In this document: positions 1,420 through 43,628 of the stretch, in pieces
Layout of the letters: each line of letters opens with the position of its first letter
How positions within the stretch are numbered: the first letter of the stretch is position 1
DNA from: Myxococcota bacterium
GTDB lineage: Bacteria > Myxococcota_C > UBA6777
Length of the DNA stretch: 47,173 bases
Direction: 5' to 3'
Assembly (NCBI GenBank): GCA_023150835.1
Contig: JAKLKB010000038.1
Span: forward strand, 1-47,173
Program-made: the position numbers and the translations under genes
The notes under the pieces: generated by a model
What the model was told of the DNA's origin: nothing
Databases searched by the model: none
The model's input: only the letters and a program-made list of their open reading frames with translations

Positions 1420-1478
1420 CCAACCCGCTCACGCAACAAGCTCTCTCCGCAAAAATCAATCATGATCAGGATTTGTGT

Positions 1479-4400
1479 ATGCGCAAACACCGCCGAAAAA
1501 CAAAAGGCAGCCTTCAACTATTCCAAACACAACCAACACAAACGCCCGTATGTAGGGGGCGTTGGTTGGCTTTGATTGGTGTATTTGTTTTTTGGGTGCT
1601 GCTGTTTCCGACGCCAGCGCCTGCGCAAACAGCGTTTTCTTACGAAGGCTTTCCCGGCCTATCCGACTTTGAATTGAGCGGATCTACCGAAGAAGCGGCC
1701 AAAGACCCCAAACGTGGGAAGGCATTGCGCATCACCAACGCGTACAGCAGCGCAGGGGGCGCGTTCTACAAGAAGCCGATCGATTTGTCTCAAAACAGTT
1801 CTTTTAGCTCTTACTTTTCATTTCGCCTCCACGAACCACGCGGCGAGATCGACGGAGCAGACAAATTGCAAGGAGCGGACGGACTGCTGTTTGTGGTTCA
1901 GACAACCAGCAACCAGATCGGAGAAGGTGGCGCAGGCATCGGATATGGCGGTCTCAAAAACAGCCTTGCGATCGAATTCGATACATGGAAAAACGACTAC
2001 GATCCAGACGGAAACCACGTTGGCATCAACACCAACGGTGAGATGAAGTCGATTGTCACAAAACACATCCAAACGCCCCTAAACAACGGAAAAGTCTGGC
2101 ATACGTGGGTGGATTACGATGGCAAACGGCACATCCTTGAAGTGCGCCTCTCCACCACGGAACAACGCCCGTACAAGCCGACCCTTCGCCACAAGCTCGA
2201 TCTCCAAAAGACCTTAAAGCAGCAGCGTGTCTATGTCGGATTCACCGCAGGCACCGGTGCATCGGGCAATATACACGATGTCTTGCGCTGGCATTTTCGC
2301 GGCCAATTTTCTCCCATCGGCGGAGAACAGAGCCTCCAAGTCATCGAAGACATACCGCACACGCTCATCCCTGATCAGCTTGGCATCATCTTCGATGCGT
2401 CGGGTTCGATGCGTGCGCGAATCTCAAAAAAAGAAACCCGCATGATGCTTGCCAAGCGCGCAATGCGCGATGTTCTCGACGAGATCCCCGATCACGTGCA
2501 GATCGGTTGGATGGCTTTTGGACATCGCTATCGCTCCACCCCCCATGCCCGTAGTTGCGGTGATATCGAGATGTTGGTGCCTTTTGCCGATAACAACAAA
2601 GCCGCGATTCAACGCGCCATCGAAAACATCCGACCGCGTGGCGAAACTCCTATCGGTCGGGCTTTGTGGCAGATAGGACAACAATTTCAGCGCAACCGCA
2701 CGAAAAAGTGGATCATCGTCCTCACCGATGGGATCGAGACTTGCGACCCCACCCCTCGCCATCCTCACTACCCTCTGCGAGTCATCCGCGATCTTCGCAA
2801 ACAAGGCATCGATCTGCGCGTCAACCTCGTGGGCTTCGGCATCCGCCAAAAAGCCACCCATCGCTTGTTGTACCGCATCGCCCAACAAGGCGGCGGCATC
2901 TATCTTCAAGCCCAAAAAGAACAAGACCTCCGCCGATCTCTTCGCAACGCGCTTACAGTACCCGTCCTCATCCGCGATCATCAAGGCCGCCTGCTCGCCC
3001 AAACCTCGCTCAACGGTTCCAAAGTCGCCCTCGAATCAGGCGATTACCGCATCGACGTGATGACACAGCCACCTGTCCTCGATCAGCCCGTCTCCTTGCA
3101 CAAAAACCAGCAGCTTCGACTCCGCCTCTCCCACTCAAACGGCTCCTTCCGGCTTCTTCTCCCCCCGCCACCACCCCAAATCATCGCAGCCACAACCCCC
3201 CGACATGCCGCGATCTCCACACCACACCACACCCACTCCCCCACAAATCCCCGAACGACCGAAACCATCCCACCCAACACCACAACACCTCCCACAAATC
3301 CCCGAACGACCGAAACCATCCCACCCAACACCACAACACCTCCCACAAATCCCCGAACGACCGAAACCATCCCACCCAAAACCTCGACGCCACCCACAAC
3401 CCCCCGAACGGCTGAAGCCGCCCCGCACAAAGCCACTCCACCCAAAACCACCACTCCATCCAAGGAGGCCCGTCCCTCCGTGCCCACCACAACCCAAACG
3501 GCTGTGCCAACGACCGCTCCGCTCGGCGGCTGCCCAGCGGCCCCAAAGCACAGCAAAGCGTTGTATACGTGGTTTGTGAAGCAATTTTCATTTGAGGTGT
3601 ACGAGGGCTCACTGCGCGGCGTATCGGGCGTTTGCGAAAGCAAGGCAGGAAACAGCGTCGATCTATCGCTCTTGTTGGCGACATGGCTCAAAGAACGCGG
3701 AAAGACGGTGCGGATCGCAACAACGAAACTTTCTGACGCAGAACAAGCAGCGGTCTTTCGAGCCTTTGTGCAACAAAAAGCGCAGCGATGGAAAACATAT
3801 CAAGAAGCCATCAACGCGAATCGCTCTTTTGAAGAGGCCATTGCAACCCTGATCGAGCGCATGGATACATTTGCGGATATCCCTTATCTGCGAGGATTGT
3901 TGCAAAGCACACCTTCGCTTCGGGAAGTCTGGACAGCCCTTGCTCTGCAACGATTTTTGCGAGAACGCCCCGAAGATCTTTATCAAGGATTGATGGAAGA
4001 AGTGGAAAAAGTCTGGCCTCCACAAGCAGAGCAAGCCAAACAGGCTTTTTCTGCACAAACGGGCGCTTTGCGTGCGATGCTGCGCGAACACACATGGGTT
4101 CAATACAAACAAGGCGAGAAATGGGTGGATCTTGATCCGGCGCTCCGTCTTCCGATAGGCCGATCGCTGCGGGCTGCACAACAACATCGCTCACTCGATG
4201 CTTTTTTGCAAACACTCCCCACTCATCGCCTTCGCTTCGAGCTAACCGCCACTTTTCAAGCAGGAAATCAGCGCAAAGACATCACACTCCTTGAGACCTC
4301 CGCCCCTGCGCATGAATGGGCCAAAGCCCCGATCATCTTGCGCTTTTCTCCCACCGATCAAAAGTTCGACCAATCCCCCCTCACTTCGGCAATCCAAAAC

Positions 4401-5861
4401 GTACTCTCCGCCAACGAAGGCGGCTTGCCTTACCAACCGCTCCTCTTGTTCGGCAAGAAAGTGATCACAGGAGCGCCTCTTCGGATCAAAGACTGGCGTC
4501 CCACCAAAGCCAGCGATCCCTTTTTCTCAGGACTCGACGAAAAAGTACCGCCCCCCTCCCAACGCCCCGAAATTGCACGCATTGTGCTTACGCTACACCG
4601 CACTTCTCCAGACGGTCAGACGAACACCACACGCCGCATCCTCTTGGACCGCGTCGGCGCAGAACAAGCCCTCTCAACGGGGGCTTGGGCGCTCGCCCCC
4701 CTTCAACCTCATCACTTCTCCGCGCTGCGCCTCATCCGCGTGTATCATGCTTCTGTTGGATCTTCCACCTCAAGCAGCCTCCCCTCACAAAAGCTCCTCT
4801 CGAATCCCTTCCTACGGGGGCTTTCGACGATCGCGGAAATCTTCCAACGCTATATCGATCACCAACACAACCTCGGATCCGACGGTCTTTCCTTCGGTTA
4901 TCGTGCTGCGCCTTCGGTCGTTGCGGTCGTTGCCTCGCCACATGATCTCCCCAATTCCCCGCCTCCAAAATACACGCATCTACCGCTGCTTTCGCTCGAT
5001 ATCTTGCGCCAAGGTTGGCAGCCGCTTCAATACGATTCTCCTGCACGCTCAGGACTACAAGCCGCTGCCGTCGAACACGCTTGGATGGAGCTTTTGCGCT
5101 CCGCCCTTCCATCGCCCTACCAAACCGCCCAAGCCTCGGTCTTCTCCATCTTTTACGAAGCCAAACAACAAAAGATCCCCTTGCGCCTCATCCACGACGC
5201 TTCGCAACTCGCCAAACTTGCCCTCTCTTCCGAACAAAAAGCCTTGCTCGCACCACATCTCCACAAACACAAGATCATCGTCCCTGAGCGGCCTGTCCTC
5301 TTCCACAACCAGCCTCGCATGGCTTGGCTGCGGATACATCGCACGCTCCACCAATGGAGCGATCACCTCGATACAGACGGACGTTCCGCTTGGACCGAGT
5401 ACGCGACAAAATTGGGACAAGAACTCAAAACCGCGCCCTTTTGGGGCTGCTTTTTTGCGCTCAACGCGGCACTCGCCAGTTTTGCAGCCTCTCGTTTTTC
5501 AAACGATCCAGCAGTGTCAAGCAAACTCAATACAGCAACGTTTGTATTGGCCACCGCTTCGCTTCTCTTGGGAACAACAGGTTGTGAAGCTTCCACATCA
5601 CGCCAAGTCACGGCTCTGCTTTGGGCCAGTTTGCTTGCTGAATACCGCTTCCTTCTGTCACCTTCCACCACACCACCCGCCTCCACAACACCACCCACCT
5701 CTAACACACCACCTGCCTCTAACACACCACCTGCCTCCAACACTCCGCATCCACCGCCCCCTCCAAGAAGGCACCGACGCAGCAGCCCCCAACAGCGAGG
5801 CCCGCAACGCATTCAATACCAACACCGATCCTCCGGCACTTACGAGATCCAACATCGCTAA
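1479..5861 (+). CDS. Large secreted multidomain protein: legume (L-type) lectin + vWA + Pro/Thr linker + transglutaminase-like domain
   Basis: N-terminal hydrophobic signal. Lectin motifs GADGLLFVVQ, SLAIEFDTWKN..DPDGNHVGIN, VYVGFTAGTG. vWA MIDAS DASGSM, GETPIG, VLTDGIETC. TGase-like YEGSLRG..GNSVDLSLLLATWL..HTWVQY..WVDLDP. Confidence 0.85.
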   Translation: MRKHRRKTKGSLQLFQTQPTQTPVCRGRWLALIGVFVFWVLLFPTPAPAQTAFSYEGFPGLSDFELSGSTEEAAKDPKRGKALRITNAYSSAGGAFYKKPIDLSQNSSFSSYFSFRLHEPRGEIDGADKLQGADGLLFVVQTTSNQIGEGGAGIGYGGLKNSLAIEFDTWKNDYDPDGNHVGINTNGEMKSIVTKHIQTPLNNGKVWHTWVDYDGKRHILEVRLSTTEQRPYKPTLRHKLDLQKTLKQQRVYVGFTAGTGASGNIHDVLRWHFRGQFSPIGGEQSLQVIEDIPHTLIPDQLGIIFDASGSMRARISKKETRMMLAKRAMRDVLDEIPDHVQIGWMAFGHRYRSTPHARSCGDIEMLVPFADNNKAAIQRAIENIRPRGETPIGRALWQIGQQFQRNRTKKWIIVLTDGIETCDPTPRHPHYPLRVIRDLRKQGIDLRVNLVGFGIRQKATHRLLYRIAQQGGGIYLQAQKEQDLRRSLRNALTVPVLIRDHQGRLLAQTSLNGSKVALESGDYRIDVMTQPPVLDQPVSLHKNQQLRLRLSHSNGSFRLLLPPPPPQIIAATTPRHAAISTPHHTHSPTNPRTTETIPPNTTTPPTNPRTTETIPPNTTTPPTNPRTTETIPPKTSTPPTTPRTAEAAPHKATPPKTTTPSKEARPSVPTTTQTAVPTTAPLGGCPAAPKHSKALYTWFVKQFSFEVYEGSLRGVSGVCESKAGNSVDLSLLLATWLKERGKTVRIATTKLSDAEQAAVFRAFVQQKAQRWKTYQEAINANRSFEEAIATLIERMDTFADIPYLRGLLQSTPSLREVWTALALQRFLRERPEDLYQGLMEEVEKVWPPQAEQAKQAFSAQTGALRAMLREHTWVQYKQGEKWVDLDPALRLPIGRSLRAAQQHRSLDAFLQTLPTHRLRFELTATFQAGNQRKDITLLETSAPAHEWAKAPIILRFSPTDQKFDQSPLTSAIQNVLSANEGGLPYQPLLLFGKKVITGAPLRIKDWRPTKASDPFFSGLDEKVPPPSQRPEIARIVLTLHRTSPDGQTNTTRRILLDRVGAEQALSTGAWALAPLQPHHFSALRLIRVYHASVGSSTSSSLPSQKLLSNPFLRGLSTIAEIFQRYIDHQHNLGSDGLSFGYRAAPSVVAVVASPHDLPNSPPPKYTHLPLLSLDILRQGWQPLQYDSPARSGLQAAAVEHAWMELLRSALPSPYQTAQASVFSIFYEAKQQKIPLRLIHDASQLAKLALSSEQKALLAPHLHKHKIIVPERPVLFHNQPRMAWLRIHRTLHQWSDHLDTDGRSAWTEYATKLGQELKTAPFWGCFFALNAALASFAASRFSNDPAVSSKLNTATFVLATASLLLGTTGCEASTSRQVTALLWASLLAEYRFLLSPSTTPPASTTPPTSNTPPASNTPPASNTPHPPPPPRRHRRSSPQQRGPQRIQYQHRSSGTYEIQHR
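3240..3410 (+). repeat. In-frame 51-bp tandem repeat (PTNPRTTETIPPNTTTP, ~3 copies)
   Basis: cccacaaatccccgaacgaccgaaaccatcccacccaacaccacaacacct repeated. Confidence 0.9.
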
Positions 5862-6115: not shown

Positions 6116-6300
6116 TCACACTGATCGCACCAACCGAACAGAGCGGGCCACGCCTTCTTCAAGCAACTGGATCAGCACAGGATCCATCCGCTCGAATTCA
6201 TCGGGGATATCCAAACACACGAGCTTTTTGTCCCTCAGCATCTCCCGAAACTGCTTGGCAACCTTGTTGCGGTGGTAGCGTTCCATCACAAAGATCACAT
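6116..6300 (-). pseudogene. C-terminal fragment of a small low-molecular-weight phosphotyrosine phosphatase-like protein
   Basis: VIFVMERYHRNKVAKQF..LVCLDIPDEFERMDPVLIQLLEEGV resembles the C-terminal half of this family. The N-terminal CxxxxxRS P-loop is missing. Confidence 0.7.
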
Positions 6301-6548
6301 TTCCAACAAGCAACGCAACTTCAATCTCATGGCGCGGAGGCTTTGCCGCGCTTTGTCAACGAAGCCCTCGGAGATTATCGCCCTACAGCAGGAAGTGCGA
6401 TGATCGACCAAGGACAACGGATCGACGGGATCAATTCGACAGAAACCCCTCTGCCCAACGAGCTCCCAACGCAACAAGAGGCCCCTGTATCGGACGAAAA
6501 CGCAAACCAAGAAGCCCCTGCATCGGATGGAAACACAAAGCAACCAAT
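6301..6548 (+). pseudogene. Fragment of the C-terminal cap of a right-handed beta-helix (choice-of-anchor Q-like) protein
   Basis: PRFVNEALGDYRPTAGSAMIDQGQRIDGIN resembles the P.FV....GDY.L..GSPAID.G motif. No start codon or upstream beta-helix body is visible. Confidence 0.5.
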
Positions 6549-8159
6549 TTATTTGCCCAACAAAGCCACGCACAACCTAGCGCGGGACACTGTGCCGACG
6601 ATTTGGTTGTTGACAGCGACCGGCAAGCGGCGGATCTGCTTGGACACCATGATATCAGCCACCTTCATCAAATCGTCTTCTGGCGATAGCACGATAGGAT
6701 GAGTGATCACCAAGTCAGAAATACGCTCGGGAGCGCGCACTCGTCCATTAATCGAAAGCAATTCAAACCTTTCCAACAACGAATCGGTTTGATTTTGATC
6801 CGATTGTGGCAAGAGATAACGGATCAAATCTCCCTCGGACAATACGCCGATAAATTCACCCTTGCCGTCCACAACGACGAGATCGCTCGCAGACGTGCGC
6901 TCCACGATCTCTGCCGCTTGACGAAGTGTCGCATCCATCCGGATGGTCTCGACGTTTGTGGACATGATATCGCGAACCTTCAAAGAACCTGTATGCGAAG
7001 TGTGGTAAGCGCTCACCATCTCTTTGGCGGACGAAGGTCGGAATTGCTGGATCGCCGCTTCGTGGATATCGACCCACTCTGCCTCTTTTGCTTTGGCTGC
7101 GATCACCGAAACAATCAACTCCTCTCCGATCATCAAGCCACGCGACGTTCCATGATCCGCGATGCCAACGCCCTTGTATTCGCTTGGGCTGTAAAATGGA
7201 AATCCGCCAAACAAGCGAAATCCTACCCGTTGCAATCGCGCCACCCAACTGCTTGTTAGCTCATGCCGTTCGGCACGCAATTCTTCTTTGTTTGCCAAGA
7301 TATCGTCGATCTCTCTGGAAAAAAACAACTTCATCGCGCTTTTGTCGCGCTCTGGGATCGCCAATCGATCGATGTAATCGAACATTGTATGAAAATGCCG
7401 CCAGCAAGCCTTGTATCGAACGAAAAAATCGGGATGAAAGTGGTCGGAATTCGGTTCAACCAAAACAAAAACGGTGGGATCGAGTGCCTTGATCCGCGCA
7501 AAAACTTCATCTCGCGCCACAGCAGCACCGTTGCCGTTGCTTTGGATGTGATGCGCTGCAAAGGCTGAGTTCACAACCAGTTCAGACGAACCGACAACAT
7601 CAGAAATCTTCGACCAATCAGCCTCTGTTAACTCTTCACCTGCCTTCAAAAAGCCAATTACCTCGATCGACAAACCCAAGAATTGCGCTGTGCTTTTCAA
7701 GGAATGTTCGGCTTCTTGCAAACTGCTTTGCCCCGGCTCGATCGCGATCACTGTAAGCTTTCTCGGCAAGGCTTGGTGTTGATGCAAAAGCTTCAGCAAA
7801 GCAACTTCTTGTTGGGCTGTTCCGATGCCTAAATCCATAAGAACGACATGATCTCGATTCGCAAGATAACCCGCCAAAAGTTCATTGGCGATCTGCCCGC
7901 TCATCGTCACCATCGGATAATTCTGAGCAAGTAGATTAAACAAAGAGATCTGAGACAGATTTAATTCCCGTAAATATAAATTAACCGCAGCTAAGTCCCG
8001 TTGGATTCGCCTTGCCAAAGCGTTCACAAAAATAGAAACGCTTAAATCCTTTGGCAACATCATGGCTTGGGCCGTTTCGTCGATGAGCCGACTCGCATCC
8101 ATTCGTCGGTCTTCGTCGATGGCTTGGGCGATCCGATGCAAATTGGATTCAATGGACAT
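6549..8159 (-). CDS. GRAS-family domain protein fused to a C-terminal CBS domain pair
   Basis: GRAS motifs FVNALARRI, ANELL..HVVLMDLGIGTAQQ (VHIID region), VVNSAFAAHHI, LDPTVFVLVEPNSDH..F..R...CWRHFHTMFD (PFYRE region), REIDDILA..RAERHE..SWVARLQRVGF (SAW region). Then CBS motifs VRDIMS..LVVVD..GVLSEGDL and RRLPV..VGTVSR. GGAGAG RBS upstream. Confidence 0.88.
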   Translation of the reverse strand: MSIESNLHRIAQAIDEDRRMDASRLIDETAQAMMLPKDLSVSIFVNALARRIQRDLAAVNLYLRELNLSQISLFNLLAQNYPMVTMSGQIANELLAGYLANRDHVVLMDLGIGTAQQEVALLKLLHQHQALPRKLTVIAIEPGQSSLQEAEHSLKSTAQFLGLSIEVIGFLKAGEELTEADWSKISDVVGSSELVVNSAFAAHHIQSNGNGAAVARDEVFARIKALDPTVFVLVEPNSDHFHPDFFVRYKACWRHFHTMFDYIDRLAIPERDKSAMKLFFSREIDDILANKEELRAERHELTSSWVARLQRVGFRLFGGFPFYSPSEYKGVGIADHGTSRGLMIGEELIVSVIAAKAKEAEWVDIHEAAIQQFRPSSAKEMVSAYHTSHTGSLKVRDIMSTNVETIRMDATLRQAAEIVERTSASDLVVVDGKGEFIGVLSEGDLIRYLLPQSDQNQTDSLLERFELLSINGRVRAPERISDLVITHPIVLSPEDDLMKVADIMVSKQIRRLPVAVNNQIVGTVSRARLCVALLGK

Positions 8160-8275
8160 AACGCTCTCCCTTGTGATGAGAGGATGACGCTGCAGTCTCG
8201 TATGAGAACATGACGATCACCCGAAGATTTTCTGCATGGGTACGGGGTATAGACAACAAGATCAGCGAAGTCAAG

Positions 8276-8391
8276 ACTCGTCCTCTTGGATAGCGCAAGA
8301 CGGATACGGTGGGTGCGGGCCTTGCGGGGGGAGGCGAGCCCCTCGGTTCGAGTACTCGTCCTCTTGGATAGCGCAAGACGGATACGGTGGG
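8276..8391. repeat. Two perfect 38-bp direct repeats separated by a 40-bp spacer
   Basis: actcgtcctcttggatagcgcaagacggatacggtggg at 8276-8313 and 8354-8391. Confidence 0.9.
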
Positions 8392-8392
8392 A

Positions 8393-11359
8393 CTAAAGGA
8401 TTTCCTGCATCGGCGTCACCAAAGCCCCATTGACGAGGCGGCCACTTTCGAGACGAAGGATCTGCCAAGTCGCAGGAGTCACACCCAGTAGGTGCGAAAA
8501 AACTTCGGAAGGACGGGGGCTTTTGCCTTGCGTATCTTGGAAGGTGATCACCAAACCATCGCCCAACCACGGTCCCCACGAGGTCGGAATGCGTGTTCCC
8601 CCGACCACGATCTCCCACGAAGGGACAACCGTTTGCAGATCAGCCGTGTAGGTTTGTTCCTTGCGAACAAAAGAACAAGGCTGAGATATCCGCTGCGAGA
8701 TGATCTCTTGCCACGCTTCGGGGCGTTGCGTCGTGGGCAACAAGCAAAAGTATTGCCAAGCAGAGATCACTTTGCTGATGCCCAAAAGACGCGCATGAAG
8801 CGGCACCACCGAAAGAAACGACAACCCCTCGATCGCGTGCTCTTGTAGGCGTGCAAGCATCGTATCCAGCGCAGGCATCGTATAAAACGACAGATCGACG
8901 TACTCCGCCAACGAAGAGGCCCCCAACGGTAAGTCATGGGCAAAGCGCACCGTCACCGTGTCGCCCGTCTCGCGCAAAAAGGGAAGCCCGCTGCGTCGAA
9001 ACGTCGCGTGCAACATCGGGAGAAAGTCTTTTTGCGTCATCAACGTGGCGTAGCCTGTACGCGCATAACGCAAACGGCAGCGATATTGATTCGGATTGTT
9101 GGGGATGATCACCGCTGGGGCCTCACGTTTGGCCCGCTCTTGCGGCACAAGGATCCGATCGGCGTGTTCGCGCAACACAAGCAAAAGACCGCGCATCTCT
9201 TCGTGCGAAGTGCCACAAGCCAAACAATGCGCTCCTAGAAATTCCGATGATCGCGATAGCTCCGATGATCGTGATAGCTCCGATGATCGTGATGGCTCCG
9301 ATGGTTTCGACGGCTCCAACGATCGCGATGATTCCGGCTGTTTCAATGGTTCCGACCGTTCCGAATCTTTCGATCGTGCCGGCGGCCTCGGTAGTTGTAA
9401 TGGATTCGTATCTTTCGAGATATCCCGATCGACCGAGGGGATATCTGCCCTCCACGCTTGCAAGCATATTTGCCAGATGGACTCCGCCTTTGTGTCGTCC
9501 TCTTGAAGATCGATCGCAGCACGAGACAACCTCTCGGCCAACAAAGCACAGCCCGCAACATCGGTCAAAACCATCGCCGCAAACGTCCGCCGCCACGCAG
9601 CAGGTGCTTTGATCCGAAAGTCCCACGCCTCGGCCAATTGTTCGAGAGCCGCAAGCCTCTCCTTCCATTCGTCATGCGAAAGCAGCGGATATTGCGTCGT
9701 CTCTGAAATATTACGCGGCAGCCAAGGATGCACAAACAGCCGCACTCTCCCGTTGCGCTGGTAAAGTTTGCTGATCTGTGTCGCTTTTCTACCGATCCGC
9801 GCCCATGCCAGCGCCTCTTGTGGACCTCTGCTCGGAACACCCAACAACAGATCCAACGGAACTCGCGTGTGACGCTGCGCCATCCGCTCTCGCCACATAC
9901 ACGGCCAAAAAGCGATGGTGGAGTCGTACCAGACCTCTTCTTCTTGCTCTTGTGAACCCTCTAAGCCCGATGGATAGGCATCCCACGCCATACACAATGC
10001 CCATTCATCCTGCCGATACATCATCCGATCCAGCCAACCATCCAGCCCCAACGCACTCAAGGCCTCCTTCCATCGTTGCTTTTCAAATGATCTCGCCGTG
10101 ATATCTTTTGTATCAGAAAAACTGGCCTCGCTCCCCTCCGCTTGTACCGCAGAAGCGGCCTCGCTTCCCTCTGCTTGTACCGCAGAAGCGGCCTCGCTTC
10201 CCTCTGCTTGTATCGCAGAATAGGCCTGTATCGCAGAAGCGGTTTCGATTTCCGCAACCTGTATCGCAGGGACGGTTTTTTTAGGCCGCACAAGCGTCGG
10301 GCGATGGATGGCCCCAAAAGACCGAGACATCGCGTCACGATGGTCTTGTTGAGCCTGTGCAAGCCAAAGCTCCCAACGTTCCCAAGCAGGTGTCTGTGGC
10401 CCGGGTTGGAGCAGATCGAGAAAACATTGCAACAAGCGAGACAGCGTTGTATCGGCTGTTTCACGCAACAACGCATCTCGGCAAAAAGCACAGCCTTGAA
10501 GATGCCATTGGCCCAACGTCCACAAAAGCGCACGTTCCGGATCAGACAGCGCATCCATCGCAGGGATCGCAAGCTGCTTCGGCCAGACCGATGCGGTCCG
10601 GATCGCATCGGTGGGTAGCTCGTACGCGAGCTTGGCTTGCTTTTGCGCTTGCCAACGCGGCGCATACATCAACAACAACGTCAGCGGATCGCCGATCAAA
10701 AACGCATCCAACCACCCCCACAAAACAGATGGCGATGAAACCTCCAAACCATCCGTATGTTCCGTATGTTCCGTATGTTCCGTATGTTCCGTATGTTCCG
10801 TATGTTCCGTATGTTCCGTATGTTCCGCATCATGCACATATTCCGTATCACACGCATGATCCGTATGCTCCGTATCATGCGTATGTTCCGTAGGTTCCAT
10901 ACGGCGTCCCAAACGGCCCACGCCATACAACAACGGCTTTTTCTTGCGATGTTCGGCCATCACAGGGATCTTTGCTTGCTCCAAGATACGCAACAGACGC
11001 AAGATATCTTCAGGTTGATCAAGGATCGCAAGCAAGATATCAAAGTCCTCTAACGGAGAGGCACTTTCCATGCTGCGTAAGACTTCTCCTTGTTCAAACA
11101 AATCGGCAGATTCTTCGGGCGAGATCGCAACAACACGCTCGACTTGGATCGAAGGGAGCGTATTGAGCAAACGGTACATCCAAAGGTGTTGTAGCTCGCG
11201 GTGGGAAGTATCTTCGCGCACAGGTAGCAGCAACGCGAGACGCAGCGATTGGGCGTCGGGCGTGATCGTCAAAGCTTCGTGCTCACCTGCAACACAGCGA
11301 TAAGCCTGATACCAGCGAAAAAGTGCGTCGCGGTAGGGATGCGAATACAGATCAAACAT
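8393..11359 (-). CDS. Degenerate TIGR03960-like radical SAM protein with C-terminal TIGR03936/DUF2344 radical-SAM-linked domain
   Basis: C-terminal YRCRLRYARTG..QKDF..FRRSGLPF..FAHDLPLGASSLAEYVDL is DUF2344-like. N-terminal LRSMESASPLEDFDIL..ILEQAKIP..DAFLIGD resembles TIGR03960. Only GCAFC remains of the CxxxCxxC motif. Confidence 0.7.
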   Translation of the reverse strand: MFDLYSHPYRDALFRWYQAYRCVAGEHEALTITPDAQSLRLALLLPVREDTSHRELQHLWMYRLLNTLPSIQVERVVAISPEESADLFEQGEVLRSMESASPLEDFDILLAILDQPEDILRLLRILEQAKIPVMAEHRKKKPLLYGVGRLGRRMEPTEHTHDTEHTDHACDTEYVHDAEHTEHTEHTEHTEHTEHTEHTEHTDGLEVSSPSVLWGWLDAFLIGDPLTLLLMYAPRWQAQKQAKLAYELPTDAIRTASVWPKQLAIPAMDALSDPERALLWTLGQWHLQGCAFCRDALLRETADTTLSRLLQCFLDLLQPGPQTPAWERWELWLAQAQQDHRDAMSRSFGAIHRPTLVRPKKTVPAIQVAEIETASAIQAYSAIQAEGSEAASAVQAEGSEAASAVQAEGSEASFSDTKDITARSFEKQRWKEALSALGLDGWLDRMMYRQDEWALCMAWDAYPSGLEGSQEQEEEVWYDSTIAFWPCMWRERMAQRHTRVPLDLLLGVPSRGPQEALAWARIGRKATQISKLYQRNGRVRLFVHPWLPRNISETTQYPLLSHDEWKERLAALEQLAEAWDFRIKAPAAWRRTFAAMVLTDVAGCALLAERLSRAAIDLQEDDTKAESIWQICLQAWRADIPSVDRDISKDTNPLQLPRPPARSKDSERSEPLKQPESSRSLEPSKPSEPSRSSELSRSSELSRSSEFLGAHCLACGTSHEEMRGLLLVLREHADRILVPQERAKREAPAVIIPNNPNQYRCRLRYARTGYATLMTQKDFLPMLHATFRRSGLPFLRETGDTVTVRFAHDLPLGASSLAEYVDLSFYTMPALDTMLARLQEHAIEGLSFLSVVPLHARLLGISKVISAWQYFCLLPTTQRPEAWQEIISQRISQPCSFVRKEQTYTADLQTVVPSWEIVVGGTRIPTSWGPWLGDGLVITFQDTQGKSPRPSEVFSHLLGVTPATWQILRLESGRLVNGALVTPMQEIL
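10752..10823 (-). repeat. In-frame 9-bp microsatellite, 8 copies (poly-HTE)
   Basis: (tccgtatgt)x8 on the + strand encodes HTEHTEHTE on the minus strand. Confidence 0.95.
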
Positions 11360-11374: not shown

Positions 11375-12706
11375 TCACTCGATGGCTCCGCCACAAGAGC
11401 TTCCTGCGCCTGCGGTGCAACCGAAGCAATGGCGGCCTGTGACGATCCGCCTCGATTGGAGAGGTAAGACGTTAAAATGTCGGATATCTGGAGAAACCGC
11501 ATCGGTCATCTCACAGGAAAGCTCCAACATTTGATTAAAATCACAATCGTACAAACGCCCGTCCCACCCGACAGAAAGCGTGTTTCGGCACATCACCCCC
11601 GCAACGGTTGAAGGGTTGAAGGCCCGCAACAGCACTTCCATATACTCGGCCAGTTGATCACGTTCGATCAACCATTCGAGATAGCGAGCGATCGGCATAT
11701 TGGCGAGTGCGATCAGACGGTCAAAAGCGACGCAGTGGTTGCGCAACAAAGCTTCTTTCCATTCGCGCTCCATCGCACACTGATCGCCCGGTAGATAGGC
11801 CCCCACAGGATTCACCATCAAAGTCAAGCGGCGTGCGGGAACTCCTTGTCCATACCCAGCGGCGTTGAGTCGGCGCAAAGCATCCAGCGATCTCTCGTAG
11901 GTTCCATCGCCGCGCTGCGCATCGGTGTTGCGCTTGCGGTAATGCGGCAACGAGCAAACCACTTCCACGCCCCGCTCCGCCAGCCACGCAGGAAGATCAC
12001 GGCAACGCTCTGTCAGCAGCACCGTGAGGTTGCAACGATCGATCACATGCTTCCCCATCTTGACGCATTCATCGACAAGATAGCGAAAATGGGGATTCAG
12101 TTCGGGGGCTCCGCCTGTGATATCGACCGTGTGTGCGGTGCTTTGGCGCAAAGCCGCAAGGCAAGCCTCCACGATTTCACGATCCATATTTTCCTTGATG
12201 CGGTCGGGACCTGCGTCGACATGACAATGACGGCAGGTCATATTGCACAGTTTTCCGATATTGATCTGGAAGATATCTAGTGTACTCGGTCGCAATGGCT
12301 GATAACCTGCGCTCGCCGTAGCCGCATCAAAATCTCCACCAAACGGAAGTCCCGCCATCGGCAAAGCCTCAAGCGTCGCGATCTGGGCCGATGCCGCCGC
12401 CAACGGCGAAGCACGCCGCACCAGACTCTCCAGACGCTGCCCACGTTCGTCTGCTTTTGGCCCGCCCGAAGAGGCTGATGACACCGACGATACCGATGAC
12501 ACCGATGACACCGATGACACCGACGATGCCGATGATGCCGATGATGCCGATGATGCCGATGATGCCGACGACACCGACGACACCGACGATGCCGACGAAG
12601 GATGCGTGACCGTGCGATCAATTCCGAGTGATGGGGTTGTTTTCCCTTCGTTGTTGCGTGGGAGTGAAGTTGCAGGCACCACGCCAAAGCGTTCAAGAAT
12701 CGACAT
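11375..12706 (-). CDS. arsS: Arsenosugar-biosynthesis-type radical SAM (seleno)protein ArsS (radical SAM + DUF3641)
   Basis: QINIGKLCNMTCRHCHVDAGP, VDITGGAPELNP, QRGDG, VMCRNTLSVGWDGRLYDCDFNQML, C-terminal HCFGCTAGAGSSCGGAI. AAGGAG RBS before the ATG at 12706. Confidence 0.9.
   Translation of the reverse strand: MSILERFGVVPATSLPRNNEGKTTPSLGIDRTVTHPSSASSVSSVSSASSASSASSASSASSVSSVSSVSSVSSVSSASSGGPKADERGQRLESLVRRASPLAAASAQIATLEALPMAGLPFGGDFDAATASAGYQPLRPSTLDIFQINIGKLCNMTCRHCHVDAGPDRIKENMDREIVEACLAALRQSTAHTVDITGGAPELNPHFRYLVDECVKMGKHVIDRCNLTVLLTERCRDLPAWLAERGVEVVCSLPHYRKRNTDAQRGDGTYERSLDALRRLNAAGYGQGVPARRLTLMVNPVGAYLPGDQCAMEREWKEALLRNHCVAFDRLIALANMPIARYLEWLIERDQLAEYMEVLLRAFNPSTVAGVMCRNTLSVGWDGRLYDCDFNQMLELSCEMTDAVSPDIRHFNVLPLQSRRIVTGRHCFGCTAGAGSSCGGAIE
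12477..12598 (-). repeat. In-frame 9-bp repeats (SSA/SSV, ~13 copies) in the ArsS N-terminal extension
   Basis: gatgccgat/gatgacacc tandem units. Confidence 0.9.
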
Positions 12707-12728
12707 CTTGGCTCCTTGCCAGACTACA

Positions 12729-12985
12729 GGCCAGATCATACGAGATCCGCTCATCGTGTGATCGCAAAACGTAGGGGCAGCCCCCTGTGGCTGCCCAACT
12801 ACAGGGCGTCTACAGCGGATCGCATGACCCTTCGATCACATCTCTTGGATATCGTTGCGTCGCCAGATCACAGGCCAAACGGCCAGATCATACGAGATCC
12901 GCTCATCGTGTGATCGCAAAACGTAGGGGCAGCCCCCTGTGGCTGCCCAACTACAGGGCGTCTACAGCGGATCGCATGACCCTTC
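12729..12985. repeat. Two identical 105-bp copies of the family A REP element
   Basis: 12729-12833 equals 12881-12985; each carries gtaggggcagccccctgtggctgccc. Confidence 0.95.
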
Positions 12986-13361: not shown

Positions 13362-14405
13362 CTAAAAATGCTTCCAACCTTGCGGAGAGACAGCTTGAAG
13401 GCTGGTGTCGGTGCGTTCTAGCAGATACCCATCTTGCGCACGAGTGATCTCGCCAATCCAAGAGACCGAAACACCGGCCTCTTGGTGGAGGGCTTCTGCG
13501 ATCGCCTGCTTTTGATCAGAAGCAGCGCAAAACAACAAGCTGTAATCGTCACTTGGCGCAAACAGCGTTTCCAACAGCCCGCGCTTTTGCTCGATAGACC
13601 AACGTTTGAGCGTATCGCTGCAAGGGATCTGCGTCTCGACGAGGCGCGCCCCCACACCCGAGGCTTTCAGCAGATGATCCAGATCCGCCAAAAGGCCGTC
13701 GCTTACATCGATCATCGCATGGGCATACAACGAAAGTACCCGTCCAGCCGCCAAAAACACTGCTGGTTGGAGATACGACCGCACCAACGGATGACAGGTC
13801 GCAAGCTCAAGAGCCTGCCAGTCTTGGGGTGAAAACGCCTGCAGGATCGCCAAGCCAGCCGCCGAAGCTCCACAAGCACCGATCAAGCCGATGCTATCGC
13901 CGAGCTGAGCCCCACTTCGGCGCACGAGTTGAGCCGCCTTGGCTTGGCCGATCAGCGTGATATCGACAAACAACGGACCCTCTGTGCTTGTTAGATTTCC
14001 GCCGACGATCTGCACTCCTGTCTCGGTGAAGGCTTCGACAAGCCCCCGATACAACGCCTCAACCGTCTCGACCGCGATCTTCTCCGTCAGGCCGAGACTC
14101 ACGAGCGCCAAACGCGGCTGTGCGCCCATCGCTGCGATATCACTCAAGTTCACAGCAGCACAACGTCGCCCCAAACAAGCGCTCAAATCGGCTCGTTCAA
14201 GCATCTGCGGAAAAAAGTGGCGCCCCATGACTTGCACATCGCAAGTCAATACCGCGTCTTCGCCGAAGGTTGGACGCCAGATCGCGGCATCATCGCCGAT
14301 CCCAAGAGGCAGATCAGCGCGTGGACGTGATGCCCACGGCGCTTCGCACAAGCGTTTGATACGTTCGATCAGACCGAACTCTCCGACCTCTTTGAGTGTG
14401 GTCAT
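13362..14405 (-). CDS. thiL: Thiamine-monophosphate kinase
   Basis: GEFGLIERI, GIGDDAA, AVNLSDIAAMG, VGGNL, AMIDVSDGLLADL, DDYSLLF, GWKHF. Confidence 0.96.
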   Translation of the reverse strand: MTTLKEVGEFGLIERIKRLCEAPWASRPRADLPLGIGDDAAIWRPTFGEDAVLTCDVQVMGRHFFPQMLERADLSACLGRRCAAVNLSDIAAMGAQPRLALVSLGLTEKIAVETVEALYRGLVEAFTETGVQIVGGNLTSTEGPLFVDITLIGQAKAAQLVRRSGAQLGDSIGLIGACGASAAGLAILQAFSPQDWQALELATCHPLVRSYLQPAVFLAAGRVLSLYAHAMIDVSDGLLADLDHLLKASGVGARLVETQIPCSDTLKRWSIEQKRGLLETLFAPSDDYSLLFCAASDQKQAIAEALHQEAGVSVSWIGEITRAQDGYLLERTDTSLQAVSPQGWKHF

Positions 14406-16516: not shown

Positions 16517-17602
16517 ATGGGACGAATCTATAACTTTTATCCCGGACCTGCGGCCTTACCCTTGTCTGTTTTGCAAAAAGCCCAAGAAGCTCTGTTCGAT
16601 TTTCGTGGCATGGGCGCTGGCGTGATGGAGATCAGCCACCGCTCTGCCGAGTTTGAATCTGTCCTGCTCAGTGCCCAACAACGGCTCAAGCGCTTGCTTG
16701 GCCTCGATCCAAGCACCCACATCTTGTTTATCCAAGGCGGTGCGCGCTTACAGTTTGCGATGGTTCCGATGAACTTCTTGCAAACAGCAGCGGCTTACAT
16801 CGAAACAGGCAACTGGTCCGAAGGCGCGATCAAAGAAGCCCGTCGTGTGGGAGAAACCCGTGTGATCGGCTCCAGCGCAGATCGACAATACGCCTACATC
16901 CCGTCCTTCGACAAAAGCCAACTGCGTGGCGATGAAGACTACCTGCACATCACCACCAACAACACGATCTACGGGGCGCAATGGCACTCCATCCCTGACA
17001 CAGGCAAGATCCCACTGGTTGCGGATATGTCTTCGGATATCGCCAGCCGTCCTCACGACTACAACCGTTATGACCTGATCTACGCAGGCGCACAGAAAAA
17101 TCTCGGCCCTGCCGGAGTGACCGTCGTTTTGGTCAAAGACAGCTTCGCACAAAAAGCCAACCGCAGCGACAAACTCTCTCCCATGCTGCGTTATCAAACA
17201 TACATCGATAAAAACTCGCTCTACAACACACCTCCCGTCTGGAGCATCTTTATGTTGGATCTTGTTCTCGAATGGCTCGAAGACGAAGGCGGACTCGCGG
17301 AGATCGGCGCTCGCAACCAAAAGAAAGCCGAGATGTTGTATCGCTTTTGCGACGAACGGCCTGATTTTTACAAAGGCTGTATTGATCGGCCTGACCGCTC
17401 GTTGATGAACATCACGTTGCGCTTGCCCACCGAAGATCTCGAAAAGAAACTGGTGGCCGAAGCCAAACAAGCCGGTTTTCTCGGACTCAAAGGACACAAA
17501 CTCAGCGGTGGCATCCGCATCTCCAATTACAACGCCATCCCCGTCGAAGCCGCCGAAAAACTGGCCGGCTTCCTTGATGAGTTTGCACGCAAAAACGCCT
17601 GA
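16517..17602 (+). CDS. serC: Phosphoserine aminotransferase
   Basis: YNFYPGPAALP, MEISHRS, QGGA, NNTIYG, ADMSSDI, YAGAQKNLGPAG, NTPP, RSLMN, GLKGH. Confidence 0.97.
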   Translation: MGRIYNFYPGPAALPLSVLQKAQEALFDFRGMGAGVMEISHRSAEFESVLLSAQQRLKRLLGLDPSTHILFIQGGARLQFAMVPMNFLQTAAAYIETGNWSEGAIKEARRVGETRVIGSSADRQYAYIPSFDKSQLRGDEDYLHITTNNTIYGAQWHSIPDTGKIPLVADMSSDIASRPHDYNRYDLIYAGAQKNLGPAGVTVVLVKDSFAQKANRSDKLSPMLRYQTYIDKNSLYNTPPVWSIFMLDLVLEWLEDEGGLAEIGARNQKKAEMLYRFCDERPDFYKGCIDRPDRSLMNITLRLPTEDLEKKLVAEAKQAGFLGLKGHKLSGGIRISNYNAIPVEAAEKLAGFLDEFARKNA

Positions 17603-33981: not shown

Positions 33982-34255
33982 GTCAACGACCCACCCCTAA
34001 AGGGGCGGGCTTGTGAAAGCAAGCCCAGTTGACCAGACGACAACAGAGGAAGTGGCGCAAGCCAAGTTGTTGTGAACGATAGAGAGCATGTAGAGACCCT
34101 CGGATGCCGCCTCAGTTCGGGGCCCTCTCGTGGCACTGTAAACATCTGCTTGGGTGAGCGGAAGTCAACCACAATGCGAAGGCTCTTCTATCCCGTCGAG
34201 AGGATGTCGGATTCTGTGCTTGCCTCAAAAAGCACAGATACGCACGACCTGAAAA
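33982..34255 (+). ncRNA. omegaRNA (HEARO-like) scaffold of IscB
   Basis: Structured region between the element end and iscB with characteristic segments cccagttgaccagac, accctcggatgccgcctcagttcggggccctc, ctgtaaaca and gtcgagagga. 3' limit approximate. Confidence 0.8.
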
Positions 34256-34266
34256 GGAAAAACGTC

Positions 34267-35502
34267 TTGTTCGTTTTTATTCAAAACCAACACGGAACTC
34301 CCTTGATGCCTTGTTCTCCGGCCAAGGCTCGCCGTCTGCTCAACGATGGCAAAGCCAAGGTACTGCGAAAAACCCCCTTTACGCTCAAGCTGTTGTATGG
34401 CAGTTCGGGATACAAACAGCCTGTAGTCGCGGGCATGGATGCGGGAACGCACACCCTTGGATGCGCGGCGGTCACGAACGGCCAAGTCGTGTATCAGTCG
34501 GAGGTCAAGCTCCGAACCGATGTCTCCAAAAAGATGCAGCAAAGGGCGGTGTATCGGCGGAATCGGCGAGGACGCAAAACCCGCTATCGCAAAGCTCGCT
34601 GGCGCAATCGTGCGAGTCTGCGCAAAAAAGGTCGGATTGCGCCGTCGGTGCGCTCGAAGATCGAGAGCCACTTGCGTGAGAAAAAGCAGGTGGAGTCCAT
34701 ACTTCCCGTGACGAGATGGAAAGTCGAGACCGCGAGTTTCGATATACACAAGCTCACGAACCCCGAAGTGTCGTCTTTGGGCTATCAGGAAGGCGCTCAA
34801 AAGGGATACTACAACGTGAAAGCGTACGTACTGGAGCGAGATGGGTATCGCTGCCAATCGGGGCGAAAAGCGGAACACGACAAGGTATTACAAGTGCATC
34901 ACAAGGTGTATCGCTGTCAGGGCGGGACAGATACGCCCGACAATCTCGTCACGTTGTGTCGAAGGTGTCACGAGGACTTGCACGCTGGGATGTTTGAACT
35001 CAAGGCAAAAAAAAGCAAAACCAAACACGCGACAGAGATGGGGATCGTGAAAGCGCAGTTGAAAAAACGTTGGAGGTTTGAAGAGACGTATGGCTACGAG
35101 ACGAAGTACAAGCGAGAACAGTGTTTGGGCTTGTCGAAGAGCCATGCCAACGATGCGGTGGCGATCTGCTGCGAAGAAGGAGAGACGGTGAAGTTGGACG
35201 AAGTGTTGTACTTGAAGCGGCATGTTTCGGCAGGGGATTACCAACAAACGATGGGCAGACATTCACAAACACGTATCCCCACAGGAAAACTGTTTGGGCT
35301 ACGCAAACACGACTTGGTCAGGACAGAAAAAGGCACAGGATGGGTCAAAGGCAAGCGCAGTACGGGCTTTTTCGTACTCGAAACCATCGACGGCCAAACC
35401 CTCACCACTTCCGTCAATGTCAAGAAGGCCACCACTCGGCTGGCCGCACGAACCACCACCCTCACAACACAAAGAAAGAGCGGCGCTTCCTCCCCCCTCT
35501 AA
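34267..35502 (+). CDS. iscB: RNA-guided endonuclease IscB
   Basis: TTG start after AAAAGGA. PLMP motif, RuvC-I GMDAG, Arg-rich bridge helix RRNRRGRKTRYRKARWRNR, RuvC-II VETASFD, HNH QVHH..GGTDTPDNLVTLCRRCH, RuvC-III SHANDAVAI. Confidence 0.97.
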   Translation: MFVFIQNQHGTPLMPCSPAKARRLLNDGKAKVLRKTPFTLKLLYGSSGYKQPVVAGMDAGTHTLGCAAVTNGQVVYQSEVKLRTDVSKKMQQRAVYRRNRRGRKTRYRKARWRNRASLRKKGRIAPSVRSKIESHLREKKQVESILPVTRWKVETASFDIHKLTNPEVSSLGYQEGAQKGYYNVKAYVLERDGYRCQSGRKAEHDKVLQVHHKVYRCQGGTDTPDNLVTLCRRCHEDLHAGMFELKAKKSKTKHATEMGIVKAQLKKRWRFEETYGYETKYKREQCLGLSKSHANDAVAICCEEGETVKLDEVLYLKRHVSAGDYQQTMGRHSQTRIPTGKLFGLRKHDLVRTEKGTGWVKGKRSTGFFVLETIDGQTLTTSVNVKKATTRLAARTTTLTTQRKSGASSPL

Positions 35503-41035: not shown

Positions 41036-42367
41036 CTACCCAATCGAACGATAACGCCGAACGATCGCGAAGGTCAACACCAACCAAGCACCAAGCAAAA
41101 ACACCGTGATCGCGCCCAACCATCGGCTCCATTGCCAATACACCAAAAACAACAGCAACAACGACGCAAAACCTTTGGCCGCCCGATAAGAAAAAACATC
41201 CACAACGGCCTTGCCTTGCGTCTTTTCTTCGTGCGAAAGCGGAAGATAAAGTAACTCTTTCGCCGCACGAAACAACGAATACCCCATACTTTTATCAAAG
41301 ATCTTCGCAAAGGCGATCATGCCGAACGTCGGAACCACAAAAAACCCACACAACGCCACCAACAACGTCACAGGGATCAACACCAACGTCGCGGATACAC
41401 CGACAAAACGCAGGATCAAACCCGTCGAAAACTGAAACACCATCGACACCACATCGATGATCGCATACACCTGCCCCACCACCGCCGTCCGCTGATCGGT
41501 GTTTGGATACGTCTTTTCGAGCATCTGGTTGTATTGATAATCAAGGCTGTTCGTGGCGATCTGCGAACACAAGATCAACAAAAACACCAACCACAAGTAC
41601 GAACTCCGCCACACAACACCAAACCCATCCCCCCATGCCGCCTTTTTCGATGGTGTTTCTGCCACAGCAGTTTGCGAAGATGCCGATGTTTCGGACGTTT
41701 TCGATGATGCTTTTGTGTCGGTACGTTGAGGCGCTCCTTGGGAAGCAGCAGAGACGGTGGGTTCATGTCCGACCCAGCGCACAAAGGCCCACGCAGCAAG
41801 CCCCATCCCCACCAACATCGGGACCAACAGATACGCGGTGTGTGCTGTTCCCCACCAACGCGCCATCGGCCCGACACCCAAGTTTGCGACCAGTCCGCCC
41901 AAAGACCCCATCACACAAAACAAACCATACAACCATCGGGCTTTTCGCAGGTCAAAGACTTGGTTGGCATAGCCCCAAAAGATCTCGACCAACACCACAA
42001 TATACACGTCTTTCCAAACATACAAAGCAAACGTACCCGCCCGTACTCCCGCGATATGCAAGCCGATCAGCCCCCAAACCAGCAAGCCGCTCCCCACGCT
42101 CACCCAACCAAAAAGCTGCAACATCGGCATCCATGACGCATGACGATTGTACAGCGCCACCACCCCCAACGCGACCGCCGCCACCACCATCCACACCGTC
42201 GGAAGAGCCTTACTGGTATACTCTTTTAGAAACAAAGACTCGCTCACAGGCCGCGCCACCGCATAAGTCGCCAACAAGACAAAGGCCAACCCACACAACC
42301 CCACCGCCCGATGGATATCCACACGCGCCCACGCATCCCGACTGGTTTCTTGATCCGCTCTCAACAC
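41036..42367 (-). CDS. Npt1/Npt2 (TLC ATP/ADP translocase-like) MFS transporter
   Basis: YAVARPVSESLF, VEIFWGYANQVF..ARWLYG, LDYQY, KSMGYSLFRAAKELLYLPL..K..GKAVVDVF.YR; ~12 hydrophobic segments. GTG start inferred. Confidence 0.85.
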   Translation of the reverse strand: MLRADQETSRDAWARVDIHRAVGLCGLAFVLLATYAVARPVSESLFLKEYTSKALPTVWMVVAAVALGVVALYNRHASWMPMLQLFGWVSVGSGLLVWGLIGLHIAGVRAGTFALYVWKDVYIVVLVEIFWGYANQVFDLRKARWLYGLFCVMGSLGGLVANLGVGPMARWWGTAHTAYLLVPMLVGMGLAAWAFVRWVGHEPTVSAASQGAPQRTDTKASSKTSETSASSQTAVAETPSKKAAWGDGFGVVWRSSYLWLVFLLILCSQIATNSLDYQYNQMLEKTYPNTDQRTAVVGQVYAIIDVVSMVFQFSTGLILRFVGVSATLVLIPVTLLVALCGFFVVPTFGMIAFAKIFDKSMGYSLFRAAKELLYLPLSHEEKTQGKAVVDVFSYRAAKGFASLLLLFLVYWQWSRWLGAITVFLLGAWLVLTFAIVRRYRSIG

Positions 42368-42434
42368 CGCACTCTCCCGTCCTCCCTCCCCAAAAAACGA
42401 CGATCTGCCCGATGCAGCGTTGGTTTGCGAGTCA

Positions 42435-43445: not shown

Positions 43446-43628
43446 CGCCCTCTTCTTCTCTATCGTGGGGTTCGGAAACATCAGTCGCCCCAAGTGGAGT
43501 CCATCTCGGCTCGCGCTGGGGTGTGTCGTGGAGTTCGTTTGGCAGCGCGTCCGACAAGATATCGCCGATGGATGCGCGCTGTTTTTCCCTTGCTCGCGAA
43601 GGGCGAGAGTAGATCATCTGCCAAGAGG

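Follow-up and report, generated by a model that had tools for sequence, protein, structure and literature searches.

A rare bacterial GRAS-CBS fusion protein, a putative SAM-dependent methyltransferase, recently acquired as a single gene by a member of the Myxococcota

The gene described here lies on a contig of 47,173 nucleotides (JAKLKB010000038.1, assembly GCA_023150835.1; hereafter the window) from a bacterium of the Myxococcota (lineage UBA6777). The window comprises the entire contig, which belongs to a draft genome (G000) of 7.56 Mb and 93% completeness. The gene occupies positions 6549..8159 on the reverse strand and encodes 536 amino acids (aa), in which a GRAS domain with a class-I methyltransferase-like fold is followed by a pair of CBS domains, a Bateman module. 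This GRAS-CBS fusion is a rare, old, single-origin sub-family, and the recent horizontal acquisition of the copy in the window, as a single gene inserted into a variable slot of the genome, is well supported. The protein is probably a small-molecule methyltransferase of the bacterial GRAS family, dependent on S-adenosylmethionine (SAM) and equipped with an adenosyl-sensing Bateman module.

The gene is intact according to the list of open reading frames (ORFs), the Pfam matches to GRAS and to two CBS motifs, and the AlphaFold model. It spans window positions 6549..8159 in a single uninterrupted frame, and a Shine-Dalgarno-like run, GGGAGAG (8164-8170), stands 4 nt 5' of its ATG. An earlier note on this DNA had proposed GRAS regions, a SAW-like one among them, followed by two CBS domains. 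Pfam recovers both halves. The GRAS family (PF03514) is matched with E=1.5e-35 and 123.3 bits, where the cut-off is 27, and aa 4-315 align with profile positions 2-325 of 374; in a genome-wide profile search, the GRAS score of the protein was 124.1 bits. The CBS family (PF00571) is matched in two stretches with E=6.7e-23. The SAW region, on the other hand, could not be recovered by sequence, since the match stops at profile position 325 and positions 326-374 remain unmatched. There is no literal S-A-W, and the GRAS domain terminates in ...VIAAKA, where the bacterial consensus is VxVxCA. The model does contain the corresponding beta6-beta7 hairpin. Pfam found no DNA-binding or output domain, and an NCBIfam scan of the protein returned CBS fragments only, all far under their cut-offs.

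Three parts can be delimited. The GRAS domain covers aa 1-356 (7092..8159, reverse strand), as defined by secondary structure assignment of the model with DSSP, by Foldseek and by phmmer. It is followed by a variable linker of aa 357-392 (6984..7091, reverse strand), seen in the alignment of the fusions and in the model, and by the CBS pair at aa 393-534 (6558..6983, reverse strand), for which Pfam, Foldseek and the alignment agree. In a phmmer search against the sequences of the Protein Data Bank (PDB), aa 42-313 matched the DELLA protein RGA (E=1.9e-13) and aa 393-533 matched CBS-pair proteins. The AlphaFold2 model, built from a 90-row alignment, has a mean predicted local distance difference test score of 92.1 and a predicted template modelling score of 0.75, and is poor at linker residues 377-387 only. 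Foldseek searches of the PDB with this model returned plant GRAS proteins first, then CBS pairs, and then SAM methyltransferases. The ESM Atlas yielded GRAS clusters only, with scores of 0.75-0.82, which are leads at best. A prediction of the complex of the CBS pair with the GRAS domain and SAM scored 0.00 against a mark of 0.32 and is evidence neither way.

The earlier note had also assigned a Rossmann methyltransferase-like fold to the N-terminal half, and Pfam, phmmer and Foldseek agree on it. In the model, an N-terminal helical cap precedes seven strands, from beta1 (104-110) to beta7 (347-356), with a helical lid inserted at 245-311. The order of the strands is that of the class-I methyltransferase core. 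The ten best Foldseek matches are all plant GRAS proteins (RGA, SCL3, SCR, SHR and SCL7), with E-values from 1e-21 to 3e-17, target-normalized template modelling (TM) scores of 0.64-0.79 and 377-403 aligned columns. Moreover, two landmarks of the plant family can be placed. The VHIID-type strand V-V-L-M-D109 is aligned with V-H-V-I-D of RGA, and RAERHE (295-300) with RVERHE of the same protein. Among methyltransferases, Foldseek matched SgvM, solved with methylthioadenosine (MTA) and alpha-ketoleucine, and BelI, solved with SAM, at E-values of about 1e-8 and query-normalized TM scores of 0.27-0.29.

The features expected to hold the cofactor are in place. The DLGIG motif pointed out in the earlier note is kept as D109-L-G111-I-G113. 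It belongs to the motif I cofactor loop, D109-L-G111-I-G113-T-A-Q116-Q117-E118 (7806..7835, reverse strand), identified from the alignments, in which D109-L-G111-I-G113-T-A115 sits directly after beta1. Strand beta2 (134-140) is followed by E141-P142, an acidic residue at this place being expected to bind the ribose hydroxyls. All 13 aligned GRAS-CBS proteins have D109, G111, G113, Q116, Q117, E118, E141 and P142 without exception, and in a set of 90 bacterial GRAS sequences the conservation of G111, G113, Q117, E141 and P142 reaches 90% or more. In the HMMER alignment, RGA has S, N and G where the bacterial proteins have G111, G113 and E141. The glycine-rich loop and the acidic residue after beta2 are thus cofactor-binding features which the bacterial proteins have kept and the plant proteins have lost. 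A second conserved polar set consists of H203, H204, E235, H240, R248, H255 and R295-x-E297-x-H299-E300.

Zhang, Iyer and Aravind reportedly predicted in 2012 that stand-alone bacterial GRAS proteins are small-molecule methylases, and the cofactor features kept here agree with their proposal. The prediction (Bioinformatics 28:2407) is cited in PMC4279901.

The C-terminal CBS pair claimed in the earlier note is seen both in the two Pfam stretches and in the Foldseek matches to CBS pairs, which reach target-normalized TM scores of 0.84; several of these structures, including AcuB and CBSX2, contain AMP, ADP or ATP. In CBS domains, the aspartate of the motif G-h-h-S/T-x-x-D binds the ribose of the adenosyl ligand. 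The first domain has G438-V-L-S441-E-G-D444, which is invariant across the fusion clade. The second has G522-T-V-S-R-A-R528, where 11 of the 11 relatives covering the position have aspartate. If the usual rule holds, the protein has one canonical and one altered CBS site.

A mechanism can be proposed on the basis of these motifs and of the model. The protein belongs to the bacterial GRAS family with its class-I Rossmann methyltransferase fold, the stock that gave rise to the plant GRAS regulators. Its GRAS domain would bind SAM in the pocket formed by D109-x-G111-x-G113 and E141. A small metabolite would be methylated under the helical lid, in a pocket probably lined by H203, H204, E235, H240, R248, H255 and R295-x-E297-x-H299-E300. 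An adenosyl ligand such as AMP/ATP or SAM may occupy the CBS pair, chiefly the CBS1 site around D444, and could tune the activity to the energy or methyl-donor status of the cell. The ligand-gated methyltransferase proposed in the earlier note is supported to this extent, each computationally testable part of that reading having held up.

The fusion is rare. When 1.84 billion cluster representatives were searched exhaustively with HMMER, 5357 matched at E<=1e-3 and 170 of these at E<=1e-30. Among the best 150 of the 5357, both halves were matched in seven clusters (P0001, P0007, P0008, P0010, P0072, P0013 and the partial P0014), P0001 being the cluster of the window protein itself. P0141 and P0195 are C-terminal fragments with the linker and the CBS end only, and no longer form with both domains occurs among these best 150 matches. 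A word-indexed search of 5.8 billion proteins found at least 14 GRAS+CBS clusters at 90% identity (P0001-P0014). The best 80 loci from 185,579 species genomes comprised four full fusions, 33 stand-alone GRAS genes and 43 loci with a related CBS pair only. The four fusions lie on a 4.8-kb contig labelled Polaromonas (L002) and in three metagenome-assembled genomes of Actinomycetota (L003-L005). In metagenomes (241 million records), two fusions were present among the best 80 loci, L094 and the partial L095. The earlier note had made its reading depend on the fusion not being common, and this census finds few clusters and few loci.

A quick maximum-likelihood tree of the GRAS domain was computed from 88 rows, with support from the Shimodaira-Hasegawa-like approximate likelihood ratio test (SH-aLRT) only and the two CBS-only fragments left out. 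All 14 CBS-bearing rows form one clade with an SH-aLRT value of 99. This clade also holds P0073 and P0076, which are shorter and may be truncated. It is nested among stand-alone bacterial GRAS proteins labelled Longimicrobium or Gemmatimonadota by their sources. The window protein is sister to P0002, at 61% identity and with a support of 99. The small number of clusters, the identity of 39-61% within the clade and its single origin in the tree mark the fusion as a rare, old, single-origin sub-family. Adding a small-ligand domain at the C-terminus is a recurrent theme in bacterial GRAS proteins. In 20 longer GRAS proteins that were scanned, the additional part was TerB in 11, a class I/II aminotransferase in one (P0142), CBS in one (P0072) and nothing recognisable in seven.

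The window copy entered its genome recently. Horizontal acquisition had been suspected in the earlier note from an AT-richer gene with gene fragments on one side and a direct repeat on the other, and each of these features was confirmed. The GC content of the gene is 49.5% against 55.2% for the genome, which places it at the 2.3rd percentile of 1611-bp genome windows. GRAS occurs once in the genome, and no GRAS was found in the five other species genomes of the phylum, which are 64-94% complete, and none in a search of another 55 genomes. A genome of the same genus (G001) is collinear with the window over the upstream radical-SAM-associated gene (8393..11359). The homology ends at window position 8392, one base past the stop codon of that gene, and restarts at 6534-6543 (blastn against L092). 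At the left breakpoint (6535..6548), the edge of this homology lies 5-14 bp past the stop codon of the GRAS-CBS gene.

Between these breakpoints, three genomes of one genus have three different slot genes. In the window, the slot of about 1850 bp consists of the GRAS-CBS gene and 232 bp upstream (8160..8391, reverse strand), which arrived with the gene and contain the Shine-Dalgarno-like run. In G001, the slot is 922 bp long and holds a 221-aa retropepsin-like ORF and the end of a beta-helix gene. In a second genome of the genus (G002), it holds an IscB-type RRXRR-HNH gene (L093 8736..9968). Past the slot, G001 has intact genes, namely the 800-aa beta-helix gene, a 205-aa ORF and a 145-aa gene for a low-molecular-weight (LMW)-phosphatase-like protein. 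The window retains only pieces of the first and the last: a remnant of the right-handed beta-helix gene at 6300..6534 (forward strand; intact at L092 4434..6836) and the last 65 aa of the LMW-phosphatase-like gene at 6116..6313 (reverse strand; intact at L092 7750..8187). The absence from relatives in the phylum, the different genes in the same slot and the sharp breakpoints all speak for acquisition from outside. The locus is a clean natural case of single-gene replacement.

The direct repeat consists of two exact 38-nt copies (8276-8313 and 8354-8391; together 8276..8391) with a period of 78, with 40 nt of GC-rich sequence between them. The breakpoint at 8392 directly follows the second copy, and contigs of other runs break at these repeats. 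Neither the 38-nt repeats nor the 232 bp upstream of the gene recur anywhere else in the 7.56-Mb genome, as judged by blastn. A tRNA-like reading of the repeats was rejected; ARAGORN found no tRNA in the window. A riboswitch or other structured RNA in the 232-bp leader was likewise rejected, since positions 8100-8460, scanned permissively against Rfam, matched nothing but a snoRNA, at a chance level (E=1.2). No sigma-70-like site was found in the upstream segment. A scan of 6300-8500 is uninformative, with one promoter-like site, located within the gene (1.6 expected), and five terminator-like sites (2.7 expected).

Tight ORF boundaries were observed in four contexts, which include the comparison of the window with G001, that of L003, L004 and L005 with each other, and a joint in a strain variant. 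The DNA of L003, L004 and L005 is 92-95% identical only across the ORF (around 7824-9515); the identity starts no further than 70 bp ahead of the ATG and ends at most 18 bp from the stop codon. In L005, the common DNA has no part ahead of the ATG and extends about 18 bp beyond the stop. In a strain variant from DNA run X12, the stop codon, which ends at position 6549, is joined directly to a dispersed repeat. An integron cassette was considered on account of these boundaries and rejected, given that blastn found no second copy of the flank in the genome, and no shared cassette scaffold, and that only 5-14 bp separate the stop codon from the synteny; no search aimed at attC was made. The neighbours differ from locus to locus. 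They are LysR, YCII and PrpF in L003; HisA, HisF and DUF222 in L004; an S15 peptidase, DUF2975 and a nitrilase-family protein in L005; and SRPBCC, flavin reductase and aldehyde dehydrogenase in L094. The neighbouring ORF in L002 has sub-threshold transposase matches only (MULE, E=3.6e-4). No conserved operon partner is common to the window, L002, L003, L004, L005 and L094, and the gene is a self-contained unit without fixed partner genes.

The window also carries a high-copy dispersed repeat. It is about 95 bp long, has a GC-rich hairpin core, and lies at 5905-6015 of the window, with further copies at about 12738-12813, 12890-12965, 19218-19277, 26237-26334 and 45027-45108. With blastn it aligns 894 times in its own genome, and G001 has over 40 occurrences. 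Inside it, contigs of other runs break or rejoin.

Several observations weigh against a functional methyltransferase, some of them touching the protein and others the gene. For the protein itself, no Pfam methyltransferase family is matched at E<=1. Sub-threshold matches to Methyltransf_12/25/31/28 at the motif I region in 11 of 20 longer relatives speak for the enzyme, but all methyltransferase matches in relatives are under the curated cut-offs. The third glycine of the canonical GxGxG is alanine in eight of 13 fusions, including A115 here, and glycine in the other five. The polar residues H203, E235, H240, R248, H255 and R-x-E-R-H-E are also present in RGA; as the polar set is mostly common to this non-catalytic DELLA protein, its conservation proves no catalysis. 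In the CBS half, R528 of this copy replaces the ribose-binding aspartate of CBS2. As for the gene, P0001, with its 454 aa, derives from a contig of run X4 in which 1 nt is deleted at codon 67 and all three further changes are nonsynonymous. This deletion may reflect decay or dispensability in that population, or an error of the contig. Finally, contigs from RNA libraries (X15 and X16, one sample) cover parts of the gene (6508-6677, 6912-7611 and 7714-8203) and cover the adjacent pseudogene stretch (6018-6542) equally. RNA libraries may contain DNA; the small-share runs X17-X20 and stretches lacking RNA contigs were left out of the reading. Because the pseudogene stretch is covered equally, these contigs are no proof of transcription of the gene.

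The observations on the protein could also be accommodated by a non-catalytic sensor or scaffold, in which the GRAS domain is a binding platform and the CBS pair reports the energy status to a partner protein. The closest solved relatives are indeed all non-enzymatic plant regulators, no methyltransferase profile exceeds its threshold, and most conserved polar residues recur in RGA. However, the glycine loop and the acidic residue after beta2, lost in plants, are invariant in the fusion clade. Moreover, the protein has no DNA-binding or output domain and its gene no conserved neighbour that could be the partner. Other bacterial GRAS genes have enzymes (aminotransferase, PTE) as fusion partners or neighbours, in keeping with a role in metabolism. 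A purely regulatory role is thus considered unlikely.

The observations on the gene suggest a different possibility, which is compatible with any of the biochemical readings, namely that of a decaying passenger without a current role in its host. The insertion is recent and was made into a slot whose neighbours are already broken. The frameshift at codon 67 with the nonsynonymous changes in X4, the replacement D528R in CBS2 and the RNA-library coverage, no different from that of a pseudogene, point in the same direction. On the other side, the ORF is intact here and has a Shine-Dalgarno-like site. The 18 differences from the X12 variant comprise 13 synonymous and five nonsynonymous ones, which argues for purifying selection. 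Furthermore, the same stretch is present in sludge or wastewater runs of 11 studies. A passenger gene is therefore regarded as rather improbable.

A same-fold enzyme with another SAM or nucleotide chemistry, e.g., aminocarboxypropyl transfer or a decarboxylated-SAM reaction, with the CBS pair as regulator, has only a slim chance, for although the Rossmann loop indicates merely an adenosyl or nucleotide cofactor and the His-rich pocket (H203, H204, H240, H255) is unusual, the nearest non-GRAS structure and profile matches are bona fide methyltransferases with SAM, S-adenosylhomocysteine or MTA bound.

The favoured reading, a small-molecule methyltransferase, leads to the question of the substrate, for which the best non-GRAS methyltransferase found by Foldseek, SgvM (ranks 29 and 33, E ~3e-8), offers a lead. 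A profile of 66 GRAS-only sequences also reaches SgvM with E=0.02, profile positions 194-267 facing positions 227-299 of the chain. Enzymes of the SgvM/MppJ type use an aminotransferase as partner to make beta-methyl amino acids. SgvM is a zinc-dependent alpha-keto-acid C-methyltransferase with H244 and H296 among its metal ligands (8ftr; PMC10502145). By simple offset from this weak profile match, H244 of SgvM falls on the invariant H203, and H296 lies 1-2 positions from H255.

The neighbourhoods of 40 stand-alone GRAS loci were compared, five others (L023, L097, L098, L100 and L103) being excluded because they were too short or reached the edge of a contig. A class I/II aminotransferase gene lies directly downstream on the same strand in 16 of the 40 (L012, L016, L024-L030, L032-L036, L104 and L105). 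All 16 belong to one family-level lineage of Bacteroidota at the level of Spirosomataceae (Emticicia, Runella, Arsenicibacter). At eight of the 40 loci the downstream gene is of the PTE family, and at six it is a 200-aa ORF without a Pfam match. In addition, P0142 is a natural GRAS-aminotransferase fusion. The aminotransferase linkage fits methylation of 2-oxo or amino acids in that GRAS clade. For the GRAS-CBS proteins, we infer a 2-oxo-acid-like substrate by analogy, as a family-level lead whose transfer is conjectural because no such neighbour accompanies the CBS clade.

A more speculative extension of this lead would make the protein a "methyl sink". A metal-dependent methyltransferase of 2-oxo-acid-like compounds would have a Bateman module that binds SAM, as in cystathionine beta-synthase, and would be switched on only when SAM is abundant; the gene, in addition, would be passed on as a naked ORF, by a transfer route whose cuts fall no more than a few bases from its start and stop codons. 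This scenario, taken as a whole, is a long shot.

Both parts of the protein and the logic of their fusion are familiar, and the GRAS-CBS protein is not a new kind of system, since many enzymes carry a fused CBS pair and the bacterial GRAS family has been described before. The closest comparison is with stand-alone bacterial GRAS proteins of about 360-410 aa, which are homologous over the N-terminal 356 aa with 37-50% identity and have the same motif I and the same conserved His/Glu/Arg set. The fusion differs from them by its C-terminal CBS pair on a variable linker and by lacking a conserved neighbour; in other clades, an aminotransferase or PTE-family gene follows immediately downstream. The GRAS+TerB fusions (about 512-542 aa) have the same layout, with a GRAS domain and then a putative ligand-binding C-terminal domain of about 150 aa, but their C-terminus is TerB/DUF533 and not CBS. 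They are commoner, with 11 of the 20 longer relatives scanned against one of 20 with CBS, and, unlike the single GRAS-CBS clade, they are scattered in the tree.

Plant GRAS proteins are transcriptional co-regulators. DELLA RGA (9o4j, 9lum), SCL3 (6kpb), SCR/SHR (5b3g, 5b3h) and SCL7 (5hyz) have the fold in common with the GRAS-CBS protein, as well as the VHIID-type aspartate, the equivalents of H203/E235/H240/R248/H255 and R-x-E-R-H-E. They have N-terminal disordered or DELLA regions and no C-terminal CBS pair. The similarity to the SgvM/MppJ type is marginal, and no aminotransferase lies near any GRAS-CBS gene, in contrast to the other GRAS clade. The CBS-regulated enzymes, such as cystathionine beta-synthase, IMP dehydrogenase, CBS-pyrophosphatase, AcuB and KpsF/GutQ, likewise have a Bateman module on a catalytic domain, and the CBS half of the protein resembles them in its NCBIfam fragments and in its fold. 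Cystathionine beta-synthase is activated by SAM. In the GRAS-CBS protein, the partner is a GRAS-type methyltransferase fold.

The plant members of the family (DELLA, SCARECROW, SHORT-ROOT, NSP1/2) are central growth regulators. The searched literature, with subscription papers and supplementary files outside its coverage, held plant gene-family papers only and none on GRAS-CBS or on the biochemistry of bacterial GRAS proteins; it contained no bench test of whether the bacterial ancestors are enzymes. The view of the earlier note that the architecture is uncharacterised is in line with this. The GRAS-CBS protein is compact, soluble-looking and confidently modelled, and offers an entry point to the ancestral function of GRAS. 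The likeness to SgvM and the aminotransferase fusion and adjacency narrow the search for substrates to 2-oxo and amino acids.

Other features of the contig were recorded. The gene upstream of the slot (8393..11359, reverse strand) encodes a 988-aa Radical_SAM_N2 + DUF2344 protein with low-complexity inserts (TEH, SEAASAVQAEG, SRSSEL), whose lengths differ among G000, G001 and G002. It stands beside genes for a DUF3641 radical-SAM protein (ArsS-like), an AIR-synthase-family protein (SelD or HypE-like) and a class-V aminotransferase, at 11375..12754 (reverse strand), 13362..14405 (reverse strand) and 16517..17602 (forward strand). Together these genes may form a selenium- or sulfur-related cluster. 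On the other side of the slot, positions 1473..5861 (forward strand) encode a 1462-aa protein with legume-lectin and VWA domains, proline/threonine-rich repeats and a weak match to a transglutaminase core.

Further along the window, positions 33982-34208 of the forward strand match the HEARO RNA (Rfam RF02033) with 91 bits, above the gathering score of 83. This RNA begins just before, and overlaps the start of, a gene for a 476-aa RRXRR+HNH protein (34072..35502, forward strand). The two constitute an IscB / omega-RNA element, and a related RRXRR-HNH gene is the one that occupies the slot in G002. Nucleotide transporters of the TLC type are unusual in a genome of free-living size. Here, a homologue of the TLC-type ATP/ADP transporter (41036..42715, reverse strand) adjoins an 831-aa PP2C phosphatase with a cyclic-nucleotide-binding domain (42534..45029, forward strand).

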